Translations under genes and position numbers: made by a program
The notes under the pieces: generated by a model
What the model was told of the DNA's origin: nothing
What the model saw: only the letters and a program-made list of their open reading frames with translations
Databases searched by the model: none
Shown here: piece after piece, positions 11,412 through 29,875 of the stretch
How the letters are laid out: each line of letters begins with the position of its first letter
How positions within the stretch are numbered: the first letter of the stretch is position 1
Assembly (NCBI GenBank): GCA_964480435.1
Contig: CAYZSS010000001.1
Location: 4,047 to 36,046, forward strand
Direction: 5' to 3'
DNA: 32,000 nucleotides
Source: an uncultured archaeon
GTDB taxonomy: Archaea > Iainarchaeota > Iainarchaeia > Iainarchaeales > 0-14-0-20-30-16

Positions 11412-12287
11412 TTATATATTGATTGTTTTACTTTGCTCAACCAAAGCAACTTTTTGTCCTTTCTGCCTAAGCCAAACAGTTACTCTAAAGACACCTTTTG
11501 AACGTAAATGTTTGTAAAGCGAGATTGTTTTTACTATTTTTTCTTTGGAATTTAATATTGTTTTTACAGGCAAATTATCCAATTCAATTCTACGGTTATT
11601 ATTTTCTATTACAATATCACAAACAACATTATGCAAAGGTTCTGCAATTATATTTTGAACATTAAAAGTTAGCTCTTCAATTTGGGCTACTTCAGGATAA
11701 CCAACATGTCTTGTTTTTATATTCTTTATATCAAAGTCAACAAGTTGAGAATAATCAAATTCAGGTTTTTGTAATAATTCGATTACTGCGTCTTTTTTTG
11801 CCAGGTCTAGCCTTGCTTCTTTTAGTTTCTGTTCAAGAACTATTAATTTGTCATTCAAATGAGCTGTTTCAGTATTTAAACCATATCCTAATTGGTGTCT
11901 TAGTTCTCTTAAAGTATCATCTTTTTGTAATAACAAGTGCTCTAAATCTTTTACCGCCAGTTGCTTTTCAGCAAGTTCAATTTCTATTTGCTTTTTTTTT
12001 GCACCCATGTGCATCATTTTTTTGTTTTTATCGCTTAACCTACGTTCAGTTTTGTGTATCAATTTTTTATGCTTAGAAATTTCTTTTTTGGTTGCTGCGT
12101 TAGAGTCCATATATTGTTGATTCTTTTCTGCAAGTCTTACCTTCAATTTATTCTGTTCTTTATTAGTTAAATCAGAATCTTGCTGTTCAAAAGTATTTAT
12201 TTTTGAAACTTCAGTCAACAATTTAGACTTTGCTTTTTGTATTTTTTCTAAGTTTTCTCTAGATTTTTCATCCCGCGGATTAATCAT
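11412..12287 (-). CDS. Coiled-coil protein with C-terminal beta-rich domain, unknown function
   Basis: About 190 aa of K/E/Q/L heptad-like sequence, then a non-repetitive roughly 100 aa C-terminus. Start chosen at ATG 12287, after GTGAT plus 4 nt; the track start at 12296 is a GTG inside that SD. Confidence 0.5.
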   Translation of the reverse strand: MINPRDEKSRENLEKIQKAKSKLLTEVSKINTFEQQDSDLTNKEQNKLKVRLAEKNQQYMDSNAATKKEISKHKKLIHKTERRLSDKNKKMMHMGAKKKQIEIELAEKQLAVKDLEHLLLQKDDTLRELRHQLGYGLNTETAHLNDKLIVLEQKLKEARLDLAKKDAVIELLQKPEFDYSQLVDFDIKNIKTRHVGYPEVAQIEELTFNVQNIIAEPLHNVVCDIVIENNNRRIELDNLPVKTILNSKEKIVKTISLYKHLRSKGVFRVTVWLRQKGQKVALVEQSKTINI

Positions 12288-12344
12288 AAACATCACTAAA
12301 GGTTATAAAATATATATAGTCTCTAAAATATATAAAGTTATGTA

Positions 12345-13712
12345 TTAAATATTAAGATTTTGATCTTGAATATAGCACAGACCCTTGCTAAGGGCTATTT
12401 CAGCATTTCGTAGTTCCCCACCCAAGTAAAAGGCATGAGCTAGCTGAGATACAGAGAAGTCAAGTACTAATTGATTATATACCTCTTTTGCAGACAAACC
12501 AGAATAGATTTTTATAGGCTGACCACTATTATCAAGATATTTTGCATAAATCTTGTCTTTTACTTCTATAAAAAAATAACCCCGCGGATCAGGGGTACAA
12601 TCTAATTCTAATCCTTTTTTTATTATTTCTTCCGCTGAATTTAAGTCATTATAATAAATGTGCGCAGAACTGCTTATTGTTGTTAAATTTCCAACGTTTA
12701 AGCCAACCTCTTTGGCAGCCCTTTCCAATATTTTTTGTAATCCAAAAGTATTCAAAAGATAACCTCCAAAAAGATCGTGGGATCTAAAATAAGCAGTTAA
12801 ATATAAAGAGTCATTTTGAACAAGAAATTGTGCAGAGGTAAGACAAGGAGGCAAAGAAGATTTTGAATCTTTTAATGGGTCCCAAAGAGTTAAAAAAATT
12901 CTTCTGCTCTCTTTAGATTTTTTTAATTCATTTATCGCCCACTCAATTTGATCAAATCCAAAATGATTACAAAGCCTTTGGCCATAAGTATATTCAACAG
13001 ATTTTATTTGTTTTCCTGTCCCAATCTGGGCCTCATAATCCTGAATTTGTTTTTTTGTTATTTTTAAATAAGCAGGAATATTTCTTTCTTCACTTTCTGT
13101 TGTAACTATCATTAAATTAACTATTTCTAAAGAGCCAATACCATACTGTGTTTTTTTCTCTACACCGTATTCTTTAATTAATTTTAATGCTTTTAGCCAA
13201 GCACTAGAAATATTTTTTTCATGAATTAAAAAGCCCGCATTTTCACTTGGCCTTTTTGCATTACAAGTCTCTTTTACTTTTATTTCCTTTGCATCCCCAT
13301 ACGATTCTTTTTTTTCAAGAGAATTAATTTTATTTTGAATTTCGTTTAAATCAGTAACACCAATTAGATCTATAATTTCCACATTAGAAATAATTTTATC
13401 CAACTCTCCAGAGGAAATATCATTTGCAATTAAATCATAATTTTTAGAAAAAATATTTTTTATTAGTTCCCCCGAACCAGACAAATCCACCCCACATAAA
13501 ATAAGACTTCTTATGTTGGTGTTTCCAGCTAAATTCCTCAAAATATATTTTACACCTTCCAAAGAATAGCAAGTACCAATTGTGTTGCAGTTAAGATTAG
13601 AGAACAAATCTTTTTTAGACCAAAGAGTAACCACCCCTACATTATGGACCGGATTTTTTACCAACAGTAAATCTTTAAAGTAAAGAGGCCAGTTTTCAAG
13701 AAGTGATAGCAT
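12345..13712 (-). CDS. thyA: Thymidylate synthase (ThyA-type core) flanked by MtrA-N-like and DUF4346-like modules
   Basis: Core motifs: SRRIFLTLWDP, LPPCLTSAQF (nucleophile Cys), YFRSHDLFGGYLLN, SSAHIYYND. N-terminus: WPLYF...NVGVVTLWS...NTNIRSLILCG...IIDLIGVTD. C-terminus: DPRGYFFIEV...AHAFYLGGELRNAEIAL...YIQDQ. Confidence 0.8.
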   Translation of the reverse strand: MLSLLENWPLYFKDLLLVKNPVHNVGVVTLWSKKDLFSNLNCNTIGTCYSLEGVKYILRNLAGNTNIRSLILCGVDLSGSGELIKNIFSKNYDLIANDISSGELDKIISNVEIIDLIGVTDLNEIQNKINSLEKKESYGDAKEIKVKETCNAKRPSENAGFLIHEKNISSAWLKALKLIKEYGVEKKTQYGIGSLEIVNLMIVTTESEERNIPAYLKITKKQIQDYEAQIGTGKQIKSVEYTYGQRLCNHFGFDQIEWAINELKKSKESRRIFLTLWDPLKDSKSSLPPCLTSAQFLVQNDSLYLTAYFRSHDLFGGYLLNTFGLQKILERAAKEVGLNVGNLTTISSSAHIYYNDLNSAEEIIKKGLELDCTPDPRGYFFIEVKDKIYAKYLDNSGQPIKIYSGLSAKEVYNQLVLDFSVSQLAHAFYLGGELRNAEIALSKGLCYIQDQNLNI

Positions 13713-13761
13713 ATAATAATAAGAGAAAAGGATTATTTATTCTTATTGGAGCAGATTTTGT

Positions 13762-14667
13762 TTACAGCATACCCGCAAGCATTATTTGGGTAATATACTT
13801 TGCTAAAAAGAATATAATAAATCCAACAAACACAAATATCGGAAAGTACAATAATCCTTTTGTGGCATCTTTGTCTCGCATATAAGCAATAATAAAACTG
13901 GAAATTACTGACTCAAAGAAAAGATAAAACAATAAAACATTGTAAATTATTTCTCCAGATGCAATAGCATCAGCTATCTCTTTTGCGGATTCTACTATTC
14001 CTGTACTTGTGGAAACACTAACTAAAAAAGATATTAAAGTATTTACTAGTCCAAAAATTGCAGGAGCAATCATTGACCCAGCAGCAACAATAAATAATAC
14101 CTGCATAGTTGTTTTTGCTTTTCTTTCCTGTTGCATTTTATACAAGTTTCTTGCATCTTCTGAAATTTCATCAAGAACCTCAGATAACCCAGCCCCTGCC
14201 CTTACTGAATCTATTATTATAGTTATTACTTTTCTTATTAAACTTGAATCAACATTCTCATTTATTGATAATAAAGCATCTTCAAAATTTGCACCATCTT
14301 CTAATCTTCTCAATACTTTCTGTAGTTCTTTTGTTAGTGGGCCATAATCGATCAAGGTAATTTCCCTCAAAGCATATTCGTAAGTTCCACCGCTTTTTAG
14401 AATATCACTCATTTCCCTCAGAGCAGAAGGAAAGTGTTTCTCTATTAATTCTGTTCTTTTGTTTTCACGATAAATTGGAGCACTAATTATTATATCTCCA
14501 ACAGCAATTACTGCCACAGCAGCAAAAACATAATTATCAAATAAAAGGGCAACTAAAACACCAGCAACCAAACCAAATAAAATAGCAGTAACAATCCAAG
14601 CAACTGGTGACAATCTTATGTTATTTCTTTCCAATATTTTTTCATACTTCAATAACATATTGCTCAT
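13762..14667 (-). CDS. Type IV filament platform protein, single T2SSF domain (TadC-like)
   Basis: 301 aa. N-terminal TM, cytoplasmic T2SSF-like helical domain (FPSALREMSDILKSGGTYEYALREI...RLEDGANFEDAL), then C-terminal TMs. AGGTG lies upstream of the ATG. Confidence 0.75.
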   Translation of the reverse strand: MSNMLLKYEKILERNNIRLSPVAWIVTAILFGLVAGVLVALLFDNYVFAAVAVIAVGDIIISAPIYRENKRTELIEKHFPSALREMSDILKSGGTYEYALREITLIDYGPLTKELQKVLRRLEDGANFEDALLSINENVDSSLIRKVITIIIDSVRAGAGLSEVLDEISEDARNLYKMQQERKAKTTMQVLFIVAAGSMIAPAIFGLVNTLISFLVSVSTSTGIVESAKEIADAIASGEIIYNVLLFYLFFESVISSFIIAYMRDKDATKGLLYFPIFVFVGFIIFFLAKYITQIMLAGML

Positions 14668-14676
14668 AATCTACAC

Positions 14677-15783
14677 CTAATATGTGGGTCTAATTTTTCT
14701 AATATATAATAACAATCCAATTAAACACAGAGGAAGTAAAACAACATATAAAAATATTATTACTGGTGGAGTCAAAGGTAAAGATGAAAATAGAGACACC
14801 CCCCCACCCATAGGAATATTTCTTATGGTTCCAAGTATTGCAAGCATAACAGGAATAACAATTCCAACAAAAATATATATTACCCCAATGAAATTCATTT
14901 TTCCTGCAAATGATTCCAAAGTCAGCCTTATTTCGAAAGAAACATCTTTTGCAGTAGTATTCAGAATATCGGAAAGATTACCACCGGATTTTAAAGCTCT
15001 TAAAATGTGATTTATTGTATTTCTTAAAGAAAATGATTTTGTTCTGTATGCTAAATTTTTCAAAGCATCTTTAGTATCTGCTCCTTGTTCAACTTCATTT
15101 ATTACTCTTGCCATCTCTTCTGATAAATAACCATATTCTCCAACGGCAATAGTTTGCAAAACCCTATACAACCCTATCCCCGCTCTTAGTTCAGTTGCCA
15201 TATGTCTTAATGCAAAAGGAAGTTCGGCATCTATTTTTTTTCCCCTATTGTTAGCAACCATTACAGGGTACTTCAGGACAATAACTCCAGAAAAAAATAA
15301 AACTGCAAAAAATACAGCTATTAAGAGATACATCGATATATTAAACCAAAAAAACAAAACGCCTGCAGAAGCAGTAATAAATATTGTTGCCAAAACTGTA
15401 ATTACAGATGATATCGCCAAGTATTGTGATGTGCTGTAATTTATATTAGCGCTGTTTAACTCTTGGCTTACTTCATTACGCCCAGGAAAAACAGCTAAAA
15501 CCTTTTTTGCAAAAAAAGAAAAGAATGATGAAAATAAATTATAAATTTTTCCTACCAATCTTACATTATTGTTATAATCGGCAGCAAGATCTCTTGGTTT
15601 TTGAACTTCTATTTGGGCTCTTTTTCCTTCAGAAATTATAGACCTTAATTCTTGCAATCTTAATGAGTCTATTTCCGAATTTAATCCTTTTTCTTCATAT
15701 TTGTGCTTGATATTTGCGACAATAGACTCCACTTGATCCAAGTTGACCTTCTGTTGCATCTTGTCGTTTAAATCAAAACTCAT
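14677..15783 (-). CDS. Type IV filament platform protein, single T2SSF domain (TadB-like)
   Basis: 368 aa. T2SSF-like segment LPFALRHMATELRAGIGLYRVLQTI...VEQGADTKDALKNLA flanked by TM helices. Adjacent to the ATPase. Confidence 0.75.
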   Translation of the reverse strand: MSFDLNDKMQQKVNLDQVESIVANIKHKYEEKGLNSEIDSLRLQELRSIISEGKRAQIEVQKPRDLAADYNNNVRLVGKIYNLFSSFFSFFAKKVLAVFPGRNEVSQELNSANINYSTSQYLAISSVITVLATIFITASAGVLFFWFNISMYLLIAVFFAVLFFSGVIVLKYPVMVANNRGKKIDAELPFALRHMATELRAGIGLYRVLQTIAVGEYGYLSEEMARVINEVEQGADTKDALKNLAYRTKSFSLRNTINHILRALKSGGNLSDILNTTAKDVSFEIRLTLESFAGKMNFIGVIYIFVGIVIPVMLAILGTIRNIPMGGGVSLFSSLPLTPPVIIFLYVVLLPLCLIGLLLYIRKIRPTY

Positions 15784-15823
15784 TAAATCACTTCATTTTC
15801 ATATACAAAATAAAACATACTTT

Positions 15824-17476
15824 TCATTCTTCTTGCATTTCATAATATTTTTGAAGTTCCAAAGAAACTTCTTTTTGTGTTTTCAAATTTGAATCCAATA
15901 ATGTTTTTAGGAATACAGCCCTATTAGAAACTTCCTTTGTAACTTGTAACAGTGTCTTTCCTGAAAAAGTTGCAATTTTTTTCAAATATCTTGACGGTAC
16001 GGAAGTATCTTGTAGTTTATCTTCTTTAGGATCCCATTCAAATATTTTTTGTATTTGTATTTTATTTTCTAAAACACCACTTACTTCTGCGATTTCAGTA
16101 ATTCTTCTTATGGTACCTTTTCTTTTATCGTGTATTCTTTGCTGAACAAGAACAATATCCAATCCAGAAAGCATTACCTGAGGCACATCCATCGGTGGAG
16201 AAGTAACTCTTATTATTGTTTCTTGTGCTGAATTTGCGTGTACAGTCCCCATACAACCATCGTGCCCAGTATTCATGGCAGTAAATAAAGCCAATGCTTC
16301 TTTGTGTCTTACTTCACCAACAATTATTCTATCAGGTCTCATCCTCAAAGCATTTTTTGTTAAAATATCCAAGTCTATTTCTCCTGTACCTTCAATTCCA
16401 GGGGGTCTTGCCTCCAATCTTATCCAATGTGTTAAAGGAAGATTTAACTCAGCAGTGTCTTCAATAGTAATTATTCTTTCTCTTTGCGGAATAAAACTAG
16501 ACAACACATTCAAAGTAGTTGTTTTTCCTGAACCAGTACCACCCGCAATCAAAATATTTGCTGGTTTAACATCAAGACCATCAACACAAAGCCACAAAAA
16601 TGCAGCTGTCTGAAGATCAGTTGTGCCGTTGTTTATTAAATCTAAAATTGTATATGGCTCCTTTCTAAATTTTCTTATTGTAAGGGTAGATCCTGATACA
16701 GATACAGGGGGTATGGTTGCATTAATTCTTGAACCATCGCTTAATCTTGCATCAAGTAAAGGCTGAGAATAATCTATTCTTCTTCCAGTATATCTTGCAA
16801 TTCTAGAAATTAAGTCAATTATATCTTTATCTTCATAAAAAACAATATTAGTAGTCATTATTTCATATTCTCTATGAAATACATATACTGGTTTTTTTGG
16901 ACCAATGATCATAATTTCTTCCAGTTTATCATCTCGTAATAGAGCATCGATTATTCCAAAGCCAACCATTTCAGTTACTACTGCATTAGCATAAAAACTT
17001 TGTTTTCCTTCTGCAATTTTTAATTCAGGGGAAGAAGTAATAATTTCTAGCACCTTTTGGAAATAAACATTTCTTCTTTGCTGTTCATCCCTTATCTTAT
17101 AAGGAGCAATATTAATCAGCCTTGTTGCAGCCTCTTTAATTGTATTTATTATTATTTGTTCCCCACTTGATGCTTTAGGTACAGGAACTTCATAATGAAG
17201 TATAGGGTGGTTTTCTACTTTGTATATTTTTACAGTATCATATGAGGCAATTAATTTTTTATTTGCAGTTTCTAAATCTTCAAATTTGATAGGGGGAAGA
17301 GCATCAGGAGAAGGTATTTTTGAAGGGTTTTCTTTGCTATTGCCGGTAAAAAGGTTATTTTCTTTTGTTTCTTCTTTTTCTTTGCCACTTTCTTTTTCTT
17401 CTTTATTTTCTTTATTTTCTTTAGCCTCTTTACTCTCTTTATCACCTTTATTGAAAAGATTATCTACAAATACCAT
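15824..17476 (-). CDS. Type IV filament/secretion ATPase (FlaI/TadA/VirB11-like)
   Basis: Walker A GGTGSGKTT, Asp box RIITIEDTAEL, Walker B RPDRIIVGEVR and His box GHDGCMGTVHANS. ATG 17476 is preferred over track GTG 17485. Confidence 0.9.
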   Translation of the reverse strand: MVFVDNLFNKGDKESKEAKENKENKEEKESGKEKEETKENNLFTGNSKENPSKIPSPDALPPIKFEDLETANKKLIASYDTVKIYKVENHPILHYEVPVPKASSGEQIIINTIKEAATRLINIAPYKIRDEQQRRNVYFQKVLEIITSSPELKIAEGKQSFYANAVVTEMVGFGIIDALLRDDKLEEIMIIGPKKPVYVFHREYEIMTTNIVFYEDKDIIDLISRIARYTGRRIDYSQPLLDARLSDGSRINATIPPVSVSGSTLTIRKFRKEPYTILDLINNGTTDLQTAAFLWLCVDGLDVKPANILIAGGTGSGKTTTLNVLSSFIPQRERIITIEDTAELNLPLTHWIRLEARPPGIEGTGEIDLDILTKNALRMRPDRIIVGEVRHKEALALFTAMNTGHDGCMGTVHANSAQETIIRVTSPPMDVPQVMLSGLDIVLVQQRIHDKRKGTIRRITEIAEVSGVLENKIQIQKIFEWDPKEDKLQDTSVPSRYLKKIATFSGKTLLQVTKEVSNRAVFLKTLLDSNLKTQKEVSLELQKYYEMQEE

Positions 17477-17584
17477 TTCGCCCACCCAATTATAATTAGA
17501 TACAACATAACTAAATCATTATAAATAACTTATATTAATATATAAATGTTATAGTTGTTGTATTAATATAACGGAGGTAATACT
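17477..17584. promoter_or_regulatory. Divergent promoter region (ATPase operon and 17585 gene)
   Basis: TATA-like TTATAAATAA and ATATATAAAT. Two copies of palindromic TATTAATATA (17533-17542 and 17561-17570). SD GGAGGT precedes 17585. Confidence 0.35.
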
Positions 17585-17968
17585 ATGGCGAAAAAAACAG
17601 AAAACGCAAAGTCAAATTATGGTAATAGGGTCGCAGTATCTATACTTGCTTATTTACTTATAGGGATAATATGGTATTTTGTTGATGAAGATGCAAAAAA
17701 AGACAGCATTACAAGATTCCATGTTAAACAAGGTTTGGTTCTGCTGATATTTTCAATCATTTATAGCATAGTGGTTTCGATCATTGTTACTATATTGGCC
17801 ACAATATTTATTTTCATACCAGGTGTTGGACTTGCACTAATAATGGTTTTCAACCTGCTTTACTTAATCCCATTGATATTAATGATCATAGGAATAGTAA
17901 ATGCTGCAGGAGAAAAAGAAACAGAGTTGCCAATAATTGGAAAATTTGGAAATAAATTAAATCTATAA
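17585..17968 (+). CDS. Small membrane protein, DUF4870-like
   Basis: 127 aa with three hydrophobic helices. RFHVKQGLVLL and C-terminal ELPIIG resemble the remembered DUF4870 pattern. Strong SD. Confidence 0.55.
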   Translation: MAKKTENAKSNYGNRVAVSILAYLLIGIIWYFVDEDAKKDSITRFHVKQGLVLLIFSIIYSIVVSIIVTILATIFIFIPGVGLALIMVFNLLYLIPLILMIIGIVNAAGEKETELPIIGKFGNKLNL

Positions 17969-17976
17969 AAAAAGCA

Positions 17977-17998
17977 GGGGTTCGAAAACCCCTTTTTT
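17977..17998. terminator. Bidirectional stem-loop terminator between convergent genes
   Basis: GGGGTT (17977-17982), loop CGAA, AACCCC (17987-17992), then T6 on the plus strand. An A-run precedes it, which reads as a T-run on the minus strand. It sits between the stops at 17968 and 18004. Confidence 0.65.
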
Positions 17999-18003
17999 AT
18001 TTT

Positions 18004-20121: not shown

Positions 20122-22296
20122 ATGGAATATGCAAGAGTAGATGAAATTATTATTAAAGTAAAAGAAGCCGACCCAAGTTTATTAGGCAGAAACATTATCA
20201 CCTTAGATGGTTCAAGCAAAGAAAGATTAAGATTATCTGCAGGGGATTTTGTTTCTATAAAAGGACAGAAAGAAACCGTTGCACAAGTATGGCCAACTCG
20301 TTCCATTGATGAACCCGAGGCATTTATTAGAATGGATAGCCTGATAAGACAAAATGCAAAAGTAGGCATTGGAGATACTGTACTAATTAAAAAAGCAGTT
20401 GTAAAAGAAGGACACAAAATAATTCTAGCACCAACACAAATTATAAAATTACCTCCCAATAATAACTTTGCAAGAATTGCAAAAAAACAATACTTAGGAC
20501 GAGCTTTAAGCGCAGGGGACAGAATACATTTGTCTTTATTTGGAAACCCAATGCAATATTTTGTTACAAAAACTAACCCCCCTGGGTTTGTATCAGTAAG
20601 TGATTCTACTATTTTTGAACTTCTTGAAACACCCATTACTCTGGAAAATGCCGAAATTTCAAAAATAGGATATAACAGAATAGGAGGTTTAGGAAAACAA
20701 TTAAATAAAGTAAGAGAAATGATTGAACTTCCGTTAAAGCACCCAGAAATATTTGAAAAAATGGGGGTTAGCCCGCCAAAAGGAATTTTATTTTTTGGAC
20801 CACCTGGAACAGGAAAAACTTTATTAGCCAGGGCAATTGCTAATGAAACAAATGCAAATTTTACTATAATAAACGGACCAGAAATTATGAGTAAATATGT
20901 TGGTGGTGCTGAAGAAAAACTAAGAACAATTTTTAAAGAAGCAGAGGAAAATGCCCCCGCAATTATTTTTATTGATGAGATAGATGCAATTGCAACAAAT
21001 AGAGACAATTCAGAAAGTGAAACAGGCCGAAGAGTTGTTGGACAATTACTTAGTTTAATGGATGGATTGCAAGCAAGAGGAGATATAATTGTTATTGCTG
21101 CAACAAATAGAGCTAACTCTATAGATCCCGCATTAAGAAGACCAGGAAGGTTTGATAGAGAACTACATATTAATGCACCAGACAAAGATGGTAGAAGAGA
21201 AATATTTGATATCCATACAGCTGGGGTTCCTCTTGCAAAGGATGTTAATTTAGATACTTTGGCAAAAAAAACTCACGGATTTGTTGGAGCAGATATTGCT
21301 GCCCTAATTAAAGAATCTGCAATGCAAGCTATTAGGCGAATACTTCCAAAAATCGATATGGAAGAAGAAACAATACCAAAAGAAATTTTAGACAGCTTAG
21401 AAATAATCATGCAAGATTGTGATAATGCTCTGCTTGAAGTACACCCTTCCGCATTAAGAGAAGTAATGATTGAAGTGCCAAATGTATCTTGGGAAGATAT
21501 TGGTGGCTTAGAAGAAGTCAAAGAACAATTAAAAAAAGGTGTTGAATGGCCTTTACAACATTCAGAATCATTCAGCAAAATGGGTATTAGCCCAATAAAA
21601 GGGATATTATTATATGGCCCTCCTGGAACGGGAAAAACAATGCTAGCAAAAGCAGTTGCAAGAAAAAGCGAAGCAAATTTTATTAGCGTAAGAGGTCCAG
21701 AATTATTTAGTAAATGGGTTGGAGATAGTGAAAAAGCACTAAGAGAAATATTTACAAAAGCAAGACAAACAAGCCCTTGTGTGATATTTTTTGATGAAAT
21801 AGATGCCTTAGCCCCAAGAAGAGACCAAATAGCGGATGGTGGGGTAAGTGCAAGACTAGTTAACCAACTTCTTGTTGAGTTAGATGGTCTGTCCGAGCTT
21901 AAAGGAGTTGTACTAATTGCTGCAACAAATAGACCGGATATTATTGATCCTGCTTTATTAAGACCAGGAAGATTTGATAATATTATTTTTGTTCCACCAC
22001 CTGATTTAGAATCAAGAAGAGAAATAATAAAAAAGGTTTCAAAAGATATGCCTTTATCAAAAGAAGCTGAAGAATTTTTAGATACTCTTGCAGAAAAAAT
22101 AGACACCTATTCAGGGGCAGACATAAATTCATTACTAAGAGAATCCGCGCTAATTTCTTTGGACAGATCAAAGATGAAAGACACCAAGGTCGGAGTAGAA
22201 GACATTAAAGCAGGGCTAAAAAAAATACGGCCTAGTCTTACAAAAGAAGTAGTAAATGAATATAAAAAATTTGAGAAAAATATAAATCTCAATTAA
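20122..22296 (+). CDS. cdc48: CDC48/VCP-like AAA+ ATPase (N domain plus D1 plus D2)
   Basis: 724 aa. Two AAA modules with GPPGTGKTLLARAIA / IIFIDEIDA and GPPGTGKTMLAKAVA / VIFFDEIDA. Each is followed by ATNRxxxIDPALxRPGRFD. Confidence 0.95.
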   Translation: MEYARVDEIIIKVKEADPSLLGRNIITLDGSSKERLRLSAGDFVSIKGQKETVAQVWPTRSIDEPEAFIRMDSLIRQNAKVGIGDTVLIKKAVVKEGHKIILAPTQIIKLPPNNNFARIAKKQYLGRALSAGDRIHLSLFGNPMQYFVTKTNPPGFVSVSDSTIFELLETPITLENAEISKIGYNRIGGLGKQLNKVREMIELPLKHPEIFEKMGVSPPKGILFFGPPGTGKTLLARAIANETNANFTIINGPEIMSKYVGGAEEKLRTIFKEAEENAPAIIFIDEIDAIATNRDNSESETGRRVVGQLLSLMDGLQARGDIIVIAATNRANSIDPALRRPGRFDRELHINAPDKDGRREIFDIHTAGVPLAKDVNLDTLAKKTHGFVGADIAALIKESAMQAIRRILPKIDMEEETIPKEILDSLEIIMQDCDNALLEVHPSALREVMIEVPNVSWEDIGGLEEVKEQLKKGVEWPLQHSESFSKMGISPIKGILLYGPPGTGKTMLAKAVARKSEANFISVRGPELFSKWVGDSEKALREIFTKARQTSPCVIFFDEIDALAPRRDQIADGGVSARLVNQLLVELDGLSELKGVVLIAATNRPDIIDPALLRPGRFDNIIFVPPPDLESRREIIKKVSKDMPLSKEAEEFLDTLAEKIDTYSGADINSLLRESALISLDRSKMKDTKVGVEDIKAGLKKIRPSLTKEVVNEYKKFEKNINLN

Positions 22297-22660
22297 AGAA
22301 AAGAGCAACATCTTTTCCTATTTTTTCTTTTATTCTGTCTTGCATTTCTTGGATTTGCGATTCAGTAAAGTCTTTCTCTGCAGATAATTTTAGACTTATA
22401 CTTAAAACAGCGTCCTGAACCTCCAAGTCTATATCTTGTATAGTTAATAAAATATTATTTTGAACAAAGTAAGTTTCGACTTCTGTTTTTATAATGCCTA
22501 TATCAGAAATATCTTTGGTACTTCCAAAAGTAAAATAATAAAGGGTGCCAGCAAGCAAGATAATAATTATTGTCACAAAAAGAATTTCAAAACTTGATTG
22601 CCCTTTTTGATTTTTTTTATTATTTGCTTTATTCAATAACTTCTGCATATGTTTTCCCAT
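22289..22660 (-). CDS. Class-III-signal (type IV pilin-like) protein, 123 aa
   Basis: N-terminus ...NKKNQKG|QSSFEILFVTIIIILLAGTLYYF: basic leader, G at -1, Q at +1, E at +5, then a hydrophobic helix. Start is ambiguous (22660 or 22648). Its 3' end overlaps the cdc48 stop by 8 nt. Confidence 0.6.
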   Translation of the reverse strand: MGKHMQKLLNKANNKKNQKGQSSFEILFVTIIIILLAGTLYYFTFGSTKDISDIGIIKTEVETYFVQNNILLTIQDIDLEVQDAVLSISLKLSAEKDFTESQIQEMQDRIKEKIGKDVALFFN

Positions 22661-23081
22661 CTTGTTCTTTAAATATACTCACCAGATATTCTTTTTTTCC
22701 TAATAAAGTCATACCATCCGTATTTGCTAGCCCTGACAAATCAAAAGATTTTATGCAAAGCCCATCAGCAGAACAGTATGCATTTTGTGGAGGATCTTTT
22801 AATGTTATTTTGTAAGTTAATGAATCTTGTAAAATGGTGATATTTGCATCTTCAGGGATAAATACAATTATTTGGGTTTTTGCAATAGACTCACTCAAAG
22901 AAACATATTCTATTGCTTCTTTTAAATTTTTTGCAGAGCCATCAATATATGCCAAACTAGAAATATCGCTTATAGAATCTTTTGCAGAATCAGAGAACGG
23001 GATTACTATTGTTTGCAATAAAATAAGAATTACCACAACAATCAAAATAAACTCAATGCTTAACTGACCTTTATTTCTCAT
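22629..23081 (-). CDS. Class-III-signal (type IV pilin-like) protein, 150 aa
   Basis: MRNKG|QLSIEFILIVVVILILL. ATGA overlap with the peptidase stop. GGTGGG SD. One Cys pair (CSADGLC). Confidence 0.7.
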   Translation of the reverse strand: MRNKGQLSIEFILIVVVILILLQTIVIPFSDSAKDSISDISSLAYIDGSAKNLKEAIEYVSLSESIAKTQIIVFIPEDANITILQDSLTYKITLKDPPQNAYCSADGLCIKSFDLSGLANTDGMTLLGKKEYLVSIFKEQDGKTYAEVIE

Positions 23082-24157
23082 ATTAACCCACCAACTAATA
23101 ACAATAAAACATAACTTAAAAACAAAGCAGGAGTTAAAGGGACACTTTGTTTAACATAAATCTCATTTGGAATTATTTTTTCCTTATGCAATTTCTTAAG
23201 CAAAGTAATATCTTCAGGATATAATCCACCCGGCCTTGCAAGAATTACATAATCGTAATTTTTGTCCTTCATTAAATCTAACTTCGATTGCAATATATCT
23301 TTATTTTTGAAATATTTAAAGATATCTTTTATTTTTGGCTTGTAAACTTGCTTGTTATCTTTAATATAAATCGATTCATAAAGTATTTCTCCCTCTATCA
23401 GACCCGATATCTTTTTTGCATTGGCAAAACCCCTTGATCTAACAAAACTAAACAATTTGACAAAAGAAAAGAAAATAACAGAAATTAGAACATAAACAAT
23501 AGCAGTAAAGATGTTTAGAGGATTAAGATACAAGGTAATTGCAAAAACTATTAGAGATATTGGCAACAAAATCTTCCAAGTTATTTTAAAAAGCAAAAAA
23601 GATAATAATGCGAATATTGTTGGAATCCCCAATAAACCAAATATAAAATATAAACCCACCAAAGTTATTGCAACAAAAAAGTAGCTTGGTAGCTTTTTTA
23701 CTAACTCCTGAAAAATTATTTTATAGTACTGATTAGCAATAATTCGTTTTATTGCTAAAAAGAAACCAAGTGGAAAAATAATAAATACTGATAGAATGAA
23801 GAAAGCCAGAATAAAATAGTAATTTATTCCTGATGAAAAAAATACTGAAAAATCTTGGAGAGGTATAGAAAAAGCCACCCCTGAAATTATTTTTGCATCC
23901 CCTCCTGCAAAAACAGAAAAATACCATAAGAGGTAACAAACAAAAAAAGTGCCAAATCCAATAATAAAAGGCCAGAATAAAAATTTGCCAACATAAATGC
24001 TTTTTGCTATCCAAAATAATATTCCAAACCCCATTAATCCAAAAGAAAGATAATTAGATATCTCCCTAGTCTTTAGATCAGTGTATGCCCCTATTGCCAG
24101 GGCAACAAAAACAACCACATAGTTAAGATAAGAAAAAATAAACTCTAAAAAATACAT
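23078..24157 (-). CDS. A24-family aspartyl prepilin/preflagellin peptidase with C-terminal extension
   Basis: Two catalytic Asp contexts about 60 aa apart: AYTDLKTREISN and VFAGGDAKIISG. Polytopic. An extra roughly 110-aa soluble segment plus a terminal TM at the C-terminus. Confidence 0.85.
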   Translation of the reverse strand: MYFLEFIFSYLNYVVVFVALAIGAYTDLKTREISNYLSFGLMGFGILFWIAKSIYVGKFLFWPFIIGFGTFFVCYLLWYFSVFAGGDAKIISGVAFSIPLQDFSVFFSSGINYYFILAFFILSVFIIFPLGFFLAIKRIIANQYYKIIFQELVKKLPSYFFVAITLVGLYFIFGLLGIPTIFALLSFLLFKITWKILLPISLIVFAITLYLNPLNIFTAIVYVLISVIFFSFVKLFSFVRSRGFANAKKISGLIEGEILYESIYIKDNKQVYKPKIKDIFKYFKNKDILQSKLDLMKDKNYDYVILARPGGLYPEDITLLKKLHKEKIIPNEIYVKQSVPLTPALFLSYVLLLLVGGLI

Positions 24158-24187
24158 AATATAAAAAAAGGAGGAGAGAATAAAAAA
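24158..24187 (-). terminator. Two oligo-T tracts between the last small pilin and the peptidase gene
   Basis: Minus strand reads TAG-TTTTTT-ATTCTCTCCTCC-TTTTTTT-ATATT-ATG. These are A6 at 24182-24187 and A7 at 24163-24169 on the plus strand. Possible partial terminator. Confidence 0.35.
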
Positions 24188-24379
24188 CTATTCGAAAGTC
24201 TTCTTAAAAAACTCAAGTTTATAATTTTCTATCCTTGTTTGGGCAACTTGCCCAATTTTTCTTAATTGCATCACAAAAAGAGTAACAGCAATAACAAGCA
24301 AAACAGAGAAAACGATAGTGAGAAGGTACTCAAATGAGATTTGCCCTCTTTTATCTTTTACTGCTTTACTTACTAACAT
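24188..24379 (-). CDS. Small class-III-signal pilin, 63 aa
   Basis: MLVSKAVKDKRG|QISFEYLLTIVFSVLLVIAVTLFV. SD AGTGATC upstream. Confidence 0.75.
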   Translation of the reverse strand: MLVSKAVKDKRGQISFEYLLTIVFSVLLVIAVTLFVMQLRKIGQVAQTRIENYKLEFFKKTFE

Positions 24380-24389
24380 AAGATCACTT

Positions 24390-24665
24390 TTATTCTACAA
24401 CACTGCCATCTAGATTAAAGTCTTTTGTTGCTTTATTTATTTGGTCATCATATACTTGCTGAGTATCGTTAATATCATCTTTTGCTGCTGAAGATGTTTT
24501 TATTAATACCCCTATTACAACTGCGGCAATAAGAATTGCTGCACCAATGATTAAAAGATATTCAAGGGCACCTTGTCCTTTTTTTTCTTTTAAAAAAATG
24601 GACCCTGTTGGGGTTTTGTTTGAAAACCCACAACTTGGTGCCTTAGTTTCTTTTAAGAAAGACAT
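24390..24665 (-). CDS. Small class-III-signal pilin with long (31 aa) leader, 91 aa
   Basis: ...SIFLKEKKG|QGALEYLLIIGAAILIAAVVIGVLI. ATG 24665 is supported by GAGTGATA 4 nt upstream. Confidence 0.7.
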   Translation of the reverse strand: MSFLKETKAPSCGFSNKTPTGSIFLKEKKGQGALEYLLIIGAAILIAAVVIGVLIKTSSAAKDDINDTQQVYDDQINKATKDFNLDGSVVE

Positions 24666-24671
24666 ATCTTA

Positions 24672-24869
24672 TCACTCTGCTATAACGTGATTTAAGTCAT
24701 CTAGTTGATTTGATGCTGTATTCATGGATTCGTTTACATCAGTCTTTGCTGACCTTGCTGAGCTTATTAGAACTGCAATTACAATTGCTGCAATTAGTAC
24801 TGCTGCTCCTATAATCAAAATATACTCTAAAGCACCCTGTGCTTTCTTATCTTTCACAAATTTGAACAT
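24672..24869 (-). CDS. Small class-III-signal pilin (candidate major pilin), 65 aa
   Basis: MFKFVKDKKA|QGALEYILIIGAAVLIAAIVIAVLI. ATG 24869 has GGAGGT 7 nt upstream. The upstream extension in the track (to 24893) lacks an SD. Confidence 0.85.
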   Translation of the reverse strand: MFKFVKDKKAQGALEYILIIGAAVLIAAIVIAVLISSARSAKTDVNESMNTASNQLDDLNHVIAE

Positions 24870-24870
24870 C

Positions 24871-25047
24871 TTAATTACCTCCAACCTGTTCACTTACTTG
24901 ATCTATTAAATCTGCGCCTTGTTGCTGTGGTTTAGCAAGGCTTCTTTTTAAATATACTCCTACTAGCGTTGCAATAACAATAACTATGACTACTCCAATA
25001 AGGAGTTCTATGCTTGCTTGTCCTTTTTTCTCTTTTATGAAGGTCAT
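24871..25047 (-). CDS. Small class-III-signal pilin, 58 aa
   Basis: MTFIKEKKG|QASIELLIGVVIVIVIATLVGVYL. This is the C-terminal part of the 161-aa track ORF. AGGGTG lies upstream of ATG 25047. Confidence 0.8.
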   Translation of the reverse strand: MTFIKEKKGQASIELLIGVVIVIVIATLVGVYLKRSLAKPQQQGADLIDQVSEQVGGN

Positions 25048-25135
25048 TACAACACCCTTTATGATATATACATTATACTTATTTTTATACGTTTCTATCT
25101 TGAATATAATAATAAATACTGGTTTGGGTGACATT
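25048..25135. promoter_or_regulatory. Divergent promoter region (pilin operon and 25136 gene)
   Basis: AT-rich with several TATA-like boxes: TTTATGATATATAC, TTATTTTTATAC, GAATATAATAATAAAT. Sits between divergent starts. Confidence 0.35.
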
Positions 25136-25951
25136 TTGGGTGCAAAACTTCTTGATCTCATTAAACGAAATAGAACTACACAAATCACATTGAGATTGCC
25201 TGATTTTAGAGTTAAATCAGTGAGAAAAGGGAAAGGACTTGATATTAAAATAGAGAAAATATTTGGAAGAATACACGAAATTAACTTAGAAAAAGCCAAT
25301 TTGACTAGTTTTTCAGAAGTACTTACAAAAATCCTTGATAGAATTGAGACAAACATTCAACATGTAAATAACTTAGAGCAAGTTGCCAGAGTATTAGCAG
25401 ATGTTTTCGTAAAGCTAGAGCCGCTAGAAACAAAAGGGCTAGAAGCGCGAAGAAGAATCTTTAACTTCCTTATTGTTGCCGGGTTTTCTAAAGAAAGAAA
25501 AGACGAATTTTCCAGAAAATTTGTGAAATTAAACTGGGTTAGCGGATTAGCCTCAGAGCAGAATGAAAAGCTTGCTGCCCCTGAGCTAATTATGGTGGCT
25601 TTATCAAGAGAAACTAGTGACATAAAAATCGACCAAAAAATATTTAGTGCAGGAGTTAAAAATTTACCAGAAGTGGCCAGAAAATGGGCAAAAGACGTAA
25701 ACTCAATAACTAATTTGGGGGCGGTAGTGGCAGGAGCAATTAGATTTTACAAATCCGAAATCAGTAAAGATAAGATAGAAAATAGAGCTGCTGTTGCGGG
25801 AATATATAATTTTTTATTTGCTGTTGCTGGTTCTTCAGAAGATGACGCAATAAGGCAAACAGCAAGGTCTTTTTTGAAGAAAAACTGGCTGCCAAAATTA
25901 GTTGATCCAGATATTTTCAGAAAACATATTGGGAAAATAGCACAAGGTTAA
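25136..25951 (+). CDS. Hypothetical soluble protein with internal duplication
   Basis: Two related roughly 90-aa halves: RRRIFNFLIVAGFSKERKDEFSRKFVKLNWVSGL and VAGIYNFLFAVAGSSEDDAIRQTARSFLKKNWLPKL. TTG 25136 was chosen because GGGTGA lies 4 nt upstream. The start is uncertain. Confidence 0.45.
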   Translation: MGAKLLDLIKRNRTTQITLRLPDFRVKSVRKGKGLDIKIEKIFGRIHEINLEKANLTSFSEVLTKILDRIETNIQHVNNLEQVARVLADVFVKLEPLETKGLEARRRIFNFLIVAGFSKERKDEFSRKFVKLNWVSGLASEQNEKLAAPELIMVALSRETSDIKIDQKIFSAGVKNLPEVARKWAKDVNSITNLGAVVAGAIRFYKSEISKDKIENRAAVAGIYNFLFAVAGSSEDDAIRQTARSFLKKNWLPKLVDPDIFRKHIGKIAQG

Positions 25952-29395: not shown

Positions 29396-29875
29396 ATGGA
29401 CAAAAGAATAATCCTATTTATTTTTATTGGTTTATTAGTAAACCTTACTTTCTTTTTTGTAATTGACTCGATTTATACCCCGTTCCCCCAATTAGTAGGA
29501 AAAAGCATATCTTTAATTACCAATTTTAATTTTGATTATAACCCAAACCCCGCTTATTACACCCCTGATTACGATTTAGAAATAAACAACCTTTGCACTG
29601 GTTTTGCAACTTTCTTCTTATTAGCAAGCATTATAATAATACAAAAATCATTAAGACTTACAAAAAATAGTTGGAAAAACATAGCCATTTTTTTGCCTTT
29701 GTCATTTATACTGCTTTATTTAATAAATATCCTGCGATTATTAGTAATTTTATATTTTGGAAATTCGCAAACCATCACAGAAACCTTGCATATTATTGGT
29801 TGGATGATGATGGGTGTAACAGTATTTTTGCTGTGGATGTTTTTTGAAAAAAAGAATAAAAATATCTCTTGTTAG
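29396..29875 (+). CDS. Miniature exosortase/archaeosortase-family protein (putative)
   Basis: 159 aa polytopic protein. Family-like order and spacing of candidate catalytic residues: NNLCTGFATFFLL (Cys), 47 aa later LINILRLLVILY (Arg), 18 aa later TLHIIGWMMMG (His). Confidence 0.6.
   Translation: MDKRIILFIFIGLLVNLTFFFVIDSIYTPFPQLVGKSISLITNFNFDYNPNPAYYTPDYDLEINNLCTGFATFFLLASIIIIQKSLRLTKNSWKNIAIFLPLSFILLYLINILRLLVILYFGNSQTITETLHIIGWMMMGVTVFLLWMFFEKKNKNISC

Follow-up and report, generated by a model that had tools for sequence, protein, structure and literature searches.

On the minus strand of a 32-kilobase (kb) stretch of DNA from an uncultured archaeon of the Iainarchaeota (Diapherotrites, DPANN), here called the window and used in full for all position numbers, lies a block of seven tightly packed genes that extends from 25047 to 22289. 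Six of these genes, designated P1 to P4, P6 and P7, encode prepilin-like proteins, and they flank a single gene for a peptidase of the A24 family (Table 1). The gaps between P1, P2, P3 and P4 measure 1, 6 and 10 nucleotides (nt), and 30 nt separate P4 from the peptidase gene, whose stop codon overlaps the start codon of P6 (ATGA); P6 and P7 overlap as well. The same products, of 58, 65, 91, 63, 359, 150 and 119 amino acids (aa), were called independently on three public contigs, the 119-aa one being the form of P7 that the gene callers took from its two possible starts. All seven genes are kept as open reading frames (ORFs) in two relatives, L001 and L006, with many synonymous codon differences: the P1 orthologues are 75-78% identical and differ by 18-23 synonymous codons, and in P1, P3, P4 and the peptidase gene the synonymous differences equal or exceed the replacements (25 versus 8 in P4, 18 versus 8 in P3). 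In P2, P6 and P7, compared with the orthologues in the same two relatives, replacements exceed synonymous differences.

Table 1. Features of the pilin-peptidase block and of associated loci in the window; a slash marks the predicted cleavage site.
Feature	Positions	Strand	Length	N-terminus or sequence	Mature length	Description
P1	25047-24871	-	58 aa	MTFIKEKKG/QASIE	49 aa	small prepilin
P2	24869-24672	-	65 aa	MFKFVKDKKA/QGALEY	55 aa	small prepilin, Ala at -1
P3	24665-24390	-	91 aa	...IFLKEKKG/QGALEY	61 aa	prepilin, paralogue of P2
P4	24379-24188	-	63 aa	MLVSKAVKDKRG then QISFEY (KDKRG/QISFE)	51 aa	small prepilin
Peptidase	24157-23078	-	359 aa			membrane protein, between P4 and P6
P6	23081-22629	-	150 aa	MRNKG/QLSIEF	145 aa	minor-pilin-like
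P7	22660 or 22648 to 22289	-	123 or 119 aa	NQKG/QSSFEI	103 aa	second minor-pilin-like protein
Putative promoter element	25095-25075	-	21 nt	AGAAAC-TATAAAAATAAGTAT		like a B recognition element (BRE) and TATA box, about 39 nt upstream of the P1 ATG
Gap between P4 and peptidase	24187-24158	-	30 nt	TTTTTTATTCTCTCCTCCTTTTTTTATATT		largest gap of the block, T6 and T7 tracts, candidate partial oligo-T terminator
Assembly ATPase	17485-15824	-	553 aa			T2SSE, 166.8 bits; putative motor
Platform protein 1	15783-14677	-				one T2SSF, matches N-terminal half of FlaJ (TadB-like)
Platform protein 2	14667-13762	-				one T2SSF, matches C-terminal half of FlaJ (TadC-like)
Second cluster, four class III-like genes	29325-27698	-	114, 168, 88, 178 aa	MKG/QISLD, NQKG/IIFSLD, MNKG/FIFTFD, KSKSG/FFSVII

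We scanned the six reading frames of the window for the pattern [KR][GA]Q...[ED] with 16 uncharged and mainly hydrophobic residues after it and obtained seven matches, against none in each of 200 shuffled sequences. Six of the matches are the prepilin-like genes of the block and the seventh belongs to another gene, at 29325-28981. The six N-termini that an earlier note on this DNA had quoted are thus all present as described: each carries Gln at +1 (Q+1) and Glu at +5 (E+5), followed by about 20 hydrophobic residues, and each has a Lys or Arg within three residues of the predicted cleavage site. The leaders of P1-P4, P6 and P7 are 9, 10, 30, 12, 5 and 16-20 aa long, and the residue at -1 is Gly in all but P2, where it is Ala. 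The mature forms of P1-P4 would consist of the hydrophobic helix and a polar tail of 25-35 aa, with no globular domain, and their lengths bear out the earlier description of these four products as Flp-like. Five of the six proteins match the Pfam family Class_IIIsignal (PF04021, DUF361), P2 and P3 with 34.3 and 33.5 bits, above its gathering score of 23.7 bits. A sequence search of the Protein Data Bank (PDB) with P2 returned sub-threshold matches to archaellin N-termini only, with E values of at least 0.16. From the motif and the Class_IIIsignal matches, we predict that the six N-termini are class III prepilin signals, cleaved ahead of the hydrophobic segment.

The leader of P3 is atypically long. 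We attribute its 30 residues to an in-frame duplication of about 63 nt, within 24575-24665, that places a sequence beginning MSFLKETKA before the IFLKEKKG/Q of the processing site. This insertion is missing in L001 and L006 and is seen on all three of the public contigs, which are identical here and each call the 91-aa product. It also holds a hairpin, GGGTTTT-CAAAC-AAAACCC, with a fold z-score of -2.8 for the 96-nt RNA.

The larger protein P6 gave an AlphaFold2 (AF2) model (predicted local distance difference test score, pLDDT, 81.8), in which a long N-terminal helix (residues 9-62) is followed by a seven-stranded sheet, a pilin-like topology.

The peptidase contains the Pfam domains Peptidase_A24 (35.6 bits, cut-off 26.5) and Arc_PepC (36.9 bits, cut-off 23.4). 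Both catalytic Asp contexts noted earlier survive a proper alignment: D27 (YTDLKTREI) aligns with QDFRSREI of FlaK, and D87 (AGGDAK) with its GGGDGK (PDB 3s0x), FlaK being the one real match in a search against solved structures (E 1.2e-5). D27, G85, G86, D87 and K89 are invariant in our family alignment, A1, which takes in one homologue of 28% identity. Hydropathy and an AF2 model indicate about nine transmembrane (TM) helices and a soluble, cytoplasmic region at about 240-337 that corresponds to Arc_PepC, followed by a final helix. Nine TM segments, that is, FlaK plus four, is the architecture described for EppA (PMC4187195, PMC4858521). The short forms FlaK and PibD share the GxGD core with the peptidase, and the C-terminal soluble domain and last helix of FlaK can also be aligned; they differ in that some four extra TM helices of the peptidase separate its catalytic core from its C-terminal domain, and in that its neighbouring substrates carry the Q+1 and E+5 that FlaK substrates lack (PMC4187195). 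The NCBIfam model of EppA (NF053826) aligns along the entire peptidase, with model positions 4-331 (of 334) pairing with residues 11-355, while the FlaK model covers residues 11-137 only, with 32.6 bits. Therefore, we consider the peptidase to be EppA-like in architecture.

The gene order of the block is shared with a wider family. A metagenome-assembled genome (MAG) labelled Candidatus (I)ainarchaeum sp. encodes a protein with 71% identity to the peptidase, and a scan of species-representative genomes yielded 80 related loci. Relatives that match over the full length are found in many MAGs of Iainarchaeota, among them the complete AR10 genome (CP010424), and in Micrarchaeota; Woesearchaeota, Pacearchaeota and Nanoarchaeota gave N-terminal matches only. 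Long forms annotated as A24 family peptidase C-terminal domain-containing proteins are also found in Methanobacteriales, where members from Methanobacteriaceae align over their full length at 24-29% identity, with the same Pfam architecture, and are each followed by one Q+1 protein of about 140 aa. These differ from the peptidase of the window in being about 386 aa long, in mostly containing Arc_PepC_II as well and in having no small pilins upstream. Upstream sequence was sufficient in 62 loci, and in 33 of these the peptidase is directly preceded by two or more small Q+1 pilins; in most of the related loci two Q+1 proteins, with median mature lengths of 146 and 112 aa, follow it. We found such peptidases beside Q+1/E+5 substrates here and in about 45 related loci.

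The small upstream pilins of the family fall into three types. The first in order has the motif QxSxE and is about 40-50 aa long; the middle type, QGALEYLLLIGGAV, is often present in several copies and has a variable tail; and the last has the motif QVSFEYLLT and a mature length of 51 aa in 24 loci and 52 aa in 14 (38 in total). P4 represents this conserved last pilin ahead of the peptidase. Among 135 small upstream pilins the residue at -1 is Ala in 81 and Gly in 53, while Ala occupies this position in only 10 of 101 downstream proteins; likewise, Tyr is found at +6 in 115 of the 135 upstream pilins (in the window, in P2-P4) and in 20 of the 101 downstream proteins. This split suggests two classes of substrate for one peptidase.

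Candidates for the remaining parts of a pilus machine are encoded elsewhere in the window. An assembly ATPase, whose NCBIfam matches are FlaI-like (314 bits) and TadA-like (243 bits), is followed by two platform proteins with a single T2SSF domain each (Table 1). They lie about 4.8 kb from the pilin genes, with RFC-S, CDC48 and two small ORFs in between. The complete AR10 genome has the orthologous genes in one unbroken run: the ATPase, two T2SSF proteins, three pilins (59, 115 and 60 aa), the peptidase and a pair of minor pilins (160 and 132 aa). In many other loci, too, the pilins come after these two membrane proteins. The AR10 run leads us to regard the arrangement in the window as a split version of one ancestral cluster. 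The AR10 ATPase gene (L015, 14-2095) is interrupted by an intein with LAGLIDADG and helix-turn-helix (HTH) domains, and its orthologue in the window is intein-free.

The Epd pilus of Methanococcus maripaludis (archaeal type IV pili of clade 1, system 1) offers a close comparison. Its EppA substrates have leaders of 5-13 aa that end in Gly, a Gln at +1 that seems essential for cleavage, and Glu at +5; its small pilins are 67-76 aa long (54-63 aa when mature) and its minor pilins EpdA-C 130-156 aa; and the genes for its ATPase and two platform proteins lie apart from the eppA locus (PMC3875500, PMC4187195, PMC4390842). The block shares with it the short basic leaders with Q+1 and E+5, tiny mature pilins (49-61 aa here), minor-pilin precursors of similar size (150 and 119-123 aa), a dedicated long-form A24 peptidase with additional TM helices, and an ATPase and two single-T2SSF platform genes that are separate from the pilin and peptidase genes. 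The earlier suggestion that Gln at +1 fits substrates of the EppA type agrees with the published rule of Gly at -1, Gln at +1 and Glu at +5. Epd-like and Tad systems are defined by short pilins and by a pair of platform genes with one domain each (PMC6668835, PMC4858521). Makarova et al. detected the 9-TM EppA in no systems other than those of "clade 1" of class I methanogens and Thermococci (PMC4858521), and a 2026 preprint lists DPANN among the carriers of "system 1" (bioRxiv 10.64898/2026.04.22.720090).

From the combination of Q+1 pilins, a long-form peptidase and a linked ATPase with a split platform, we take the locus to be an Epd-like module. We consider it highly probable that the block is the pilin and peptidase part of an Epd-like type IV pilus, which belongs to "system 1" within the superfamily of type IV filaments (TFF) and is related to Tad, in this archaeon. 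It is not a copy of the M. maripaludis system: here the small pilins lie directly upstream of the peptidase gene and there elsewhere in the genome; Ala at -1 is common here, and the Tyr at +6 is lacking in the M. maripaludis pilins (PMC3875500); no accessory genes of the Methanococcus-specific type (mmp0234, mmp0239-0241) were recognised here; and the lineage is DPANN here and a methanogen there.

There is also a resemblance to the Tad/Flp (Cpa) pili of bacteria. Small pilin genes followed immediately by a prepilin peptidase gene are what we take to be the order of bacterial tad/cpa loci (flp/pilA, then tadV/cpaA), and a G/xxxxEY processing motif presumably typifies Tad pilins. The likeness extends to mature pilins of about 50-60 aa that have no globular domain, to the split, TadB/TadC-like platform, to two larger pseudopilin-like proteins (TadE and TadF in Tad) and to Pfam matches to Flp_Fap, Flp1_like and TadF, which are weak (E 0.02-0.2) and far below the cut-offs. 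Against this, the secretin RcpA and TadZ, TadD and TadG were not found in scans of the window, the host archaeon has a single membrane, and the peptidase, at 359 aa, carries Arc_PepC, an archaeal domain according to Pfam that is not known from TadV/CpaA. The likeness to Tad does not go beyond pilin size, gene order, the split platform and the EY motif. A Tyr at +6 and the Flp motif are typical of Flp pilins (PMC3875500).

Apart from the block, the window contains a second cluster of four class III-like genes (Table 1), of which only the first, the seventh match of our motif scan, fits the Q+1 rule. Pfam matched neither these proteins nor the other unassigned ORFs. The cluster occurs in L001 too, and a protein with the N-terminus Q-I-S-[LF]-D recurs 2-5 kb from the peptidase in many loci. 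These genes possibly encode further minor pilins. A small gene of the exosortase/archaeosortase family (29396-29875, plus strand; TIGR04178, 38 bits) diverges from the cluster, an arrangement shared by L001.

Several observations weigh against the Epd-like reading or limit how far it can be taken. P1, P4 and P6 match Class_IIIsignal with 19.3 (E 0.0011), 19.8 and 21.1 bits, just below the gathering score, and P7 has no Pfam match. A search of the PDB with the P6 model found nothing significant, the best match being an OB fold (E 0.034) and a bacterial pilin appearing at rank 14 (E 0.26); its pilin fold is therefore assigned from topology only. The AF2 model of the peptidase has only moderate confidence (pLDDT 67), and because of this mediocre model FlaK, its top PDB fold match, is reached weakly (E 0.14). 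The score of the peptidase on the EppA model, 52.1 bits, lies far below the equivalog cut-off of 450 bits. Homologues score likewise low on this model (Methanobacteriaceae 40-57 bits; Methanobacteriaceae together with AR10 34-58 bits), and NF053826 is effectively specific to Methanococcales and unable to decide on membership elsewhere. A search of a protein database with the A1 profile returned mostly Methanobacterium-type proteins, none named EppA and none from Methanococcus, and gave no direct link to a characterised EppA. Since the peptidase and its Methanobacteriaceae homologues all fall under the cut-off, we call the peptidase EppA-like in architecture and context and do not file it as an EppA orthologue. 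The three proteins of the second cluster that lack Gln at +1 imply either that the peptidase is less Gln-specific than EppA or that another peptidase exists elsewhere. The pairing of the ATPase and platform with the pilins is inferred from synteny in other genomes. The Pfam scan, which covered ORFs of at least 90 aa in the window, revealed no second ATPase akin to FleN/MinD/TadZ or FlaH; such an ATPase is frequent but not obligatory in these loci (PMC4858521).

We weighed several other explanations of the block. With the same genes, the peptidase might be the cell's single general class III signal peptidase, in a PibD-like role and not specific for Gln at +1. Small DPANN genomes often keep one copy of such enzymes, and Pfam scans found no second A24 peptidase in the 32-kb window; three of the four proteins of the second cluster (28984-27698) have Ile or Phe after the Gly, and the frequency of Ala at -1 in the upstream pilins (81 of 135) hints at relaxed specificity. 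However, all six adjacent substrates carry Gln at +1, as do over 200 proteins that neighbour the peptidase in related loci, and the architecture is that of the long EppA form and not of the short PibD/FlaK form, and we regard this explanation as credible but unlikely. It is also conceivable that the filament is something other than an adhesive pilus, such as an apparatus for DNA uptake, a secretion pseudopilus or a structure by which an episymbiont attaches or bridges to its host. The TFF superfamily has repeatedly changed function (PMC6668835), large DUF4215/CARDB-type proteins that may be adhesins or effectors directly follow the minor pilins in L001, and dependence on a host is frequent among DPANN archaea. 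Yet the sole characterised Epd system mediates attachment to surfaces (PMC6668835), the large proteins of L001 are missing from the window, and Pfam scans found no DNA-processing or secretion-substrate genes in the block; we therefore think a non-adhesive function improbable.

Two further explanations are both effectively excluded. If the hydrophobic N-termini were ordinary Sec signal peptides or membrane anchors, their adjacency to the peptidase would be a coincidence; the small residues past the hydrophobic segment of P2 (SSARSA) might indeed be flagged by a Sec predictor, but the motif precedes the hydrophobic segment, its matches do not arise in shuffled sequences, five of the six proteins match Class_IIIsignal, and the order pilin-peptidase-pilin recurs in dozens of genomes and, in AR10, adjoins the ATPase and platform genes without a break. 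The block could otherwise be an archaellum system with FlaK as its peptidase, a name that some records of the Joint Genome Institute (JGI) give to the homologues. FlaI is the best NCBIfam match of the ATPase, and P2 and P3 have weak N-terminal matches to Arch_flagellin (20-25 bits), but the former score lies below the cut-off of 550 bits and the latter below 29.5, covering the N-terminal helix only. Moreover, the pilins lack the globular domain of archaellins, the platform comes as two genes, like those of Epd and Tad, genes for FlaF, FlaG, FlaH and FlaX were not found in the window, and the FlaK model is restricted to the N-terminal third of the peptidase.

Candidate signals for expression of the Epd-like block can be recognised at two points. 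The BRE/TATA-like element upstream of P1 is invariant between the window and both L001 and L006, relatives with peptidases of 68-71% identity, although the flanking intergenic DNA has diverged, and a conserved GGTG motif resembling a Shine-Dalgarno sequence lies between it and the P1 start. It is likely the promoter of the pilin block. The second point is the gap ahead of the peptidase gene, where the earlier note had seen two oligo-T tracts, and these are indeed there. Oligo-T tracts are archaeal termination signals, and two runs of at least six T within 30 nt occur at 0.23% of positions on the same strand. L001 and L006 have retained the tracts, as T6 and T5, but the wider family has not: in many other loci the gap before the peptidase is 0-16 nt long and has no T runs, and in several (L009 and L015, for example) the automatic choice of start codon had put coding sequence into stretches labelled intergenic. 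Partial attenuation in the gap is a plausible but weak reading for this sub-lineage and is not a trait of the family. The conservation of the tracts was dropped as evidence for attenuation, since it holds only in two close relatives. The gap contains no promoter-like element able to serve the peptidase gene, its sole TATA-like string abutting the ATG, and the next Met of the peptidase lies beyond D27. Given a 30-nt gap that has no promoter, we infer that the peptidase, P6 and P7 are expressed by read-through.

On the other side of the promoter, a plus-strand ORF of 296 aa (25061-25951) lies between it and a gene for an 89-aa protein; it has no Pfam match and is missing at this place in L001. 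Since its called start overlaps the promoter element of P1, the true start is probably further downstream.

As an Epd-like module, the block would work as follows. Transcription from the putative promoter would drive P1-P4, with read-through of the T-rich gap providing the peptidase, to which P6 and P7 are probably coupled in translation through their overlapping starts and stops. The six precursors would enter the membrane with the basic leaders left on the cytoplasmic side, and the long-form GxGD protease would cut between Gly or Ala (-1) and Gln (+1), using D27 and D87 in a chemistry like that of FlaK and EppA. The new N-terminal Gln probably cyclises to pyroglutamate, by analogy with the major pilin of M. 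maripaludis, for which this modification is given in PMC4471445 with reference to Ng et al. 2011. The ATPase and the split platform would then extract and polymerise the mature subunits. The shaft would be built from a helix-only subunit of 49-61 aa, and the QGALEY type of P2 and P3 is the best candidate for it because it is multi-copy and the most canonical. P6 and P7, judging from their size, motif and position and from the topology of the P6 model, may be minor pilins that prime or tip the fibre. On the precedents of Epd and Tad, the pilus would most likely serve in adhesion to surfaces or to other cells.

We stress that this type of pilus is known, that it had been noted, though not dissected, in this lineage, and that it leaves current understanding unchanged. 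What the locus provides is a compact and well-conserved pilus gene set for the uncultured DPANN lineage Iainarchaeota, with candidates for the shaft, the minor pilins and the processing enzyme, pili being a plausible means by which archaea with small genomes attach to surfaces or partner cells. The features shared across the family also extend the substrate rule of the EppA type to Ala or Gly at -1, Gln at +1, Glu at +5 and Tyr at +6, and bring archaeal small pilins closer to bacterial Flp pilins, which bears on the proposed archaeal origin of Tad. Bacterial Tad pili have been inferred to derive from an Epd-like archaeal system (PMC6668835). The Flp-sized pilins with [GA]/QxxxEY directly upstream of the peptidase, the two pseudopilin-like genes and the contiguous AR10 run of ATPase, TadB-like and TadC-like proteins, pilins and peptidase raise the further thought, which we hold to be very doubtful, that the Iainarchaeota version of the Epd-like system is the living archaeal arrangement nearest to the ancestor of bacterial Tad. 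If that were true, DPANN-like archaea, and not methanogens, would mark the donor lineage of the transfer from archaea to bacteria. A related speculation is that the Arc_PepC domain might catalyse the cyclisation of the N-terminal Gln.

A few features around the block remain to be recorded. At its downstream end, P7 abuts the plus-strand gene CDC48, and the 3' ends of these convergent genes overlap by 8 nt (22289-22296); past the P7 stop codon, the minus strand has a T5 and a T6 tract. In L001, extra genes encoding proteins of 172, 795 and 1038 aa (within 11906-17999), which are missing in the window, lie between the second minor pilin and CDC48. The 1038-aa protein has a match to DUF4215 and faint matches to CARDB, and the extra genes are candidates for adhesins or tip proteins. 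The window, with a guanine-cytosine (GC) content of about 30%, also holds archaeal housekeeping genes, namely CDC48, both RFC subunits, DNA ligase, a proteasome subunit, FttA and SecDF; scans of it for tRNA genes and Rfam families found nothing. Adjoining the pilus platform genes, a minus-strand gene (13712-12345) encodes an unusual fusion protein of 455 aa, in which an MtrA-like N-terminus is joined to thymidylate synthase and a C-terminal PterinBD-DUF4346 region.

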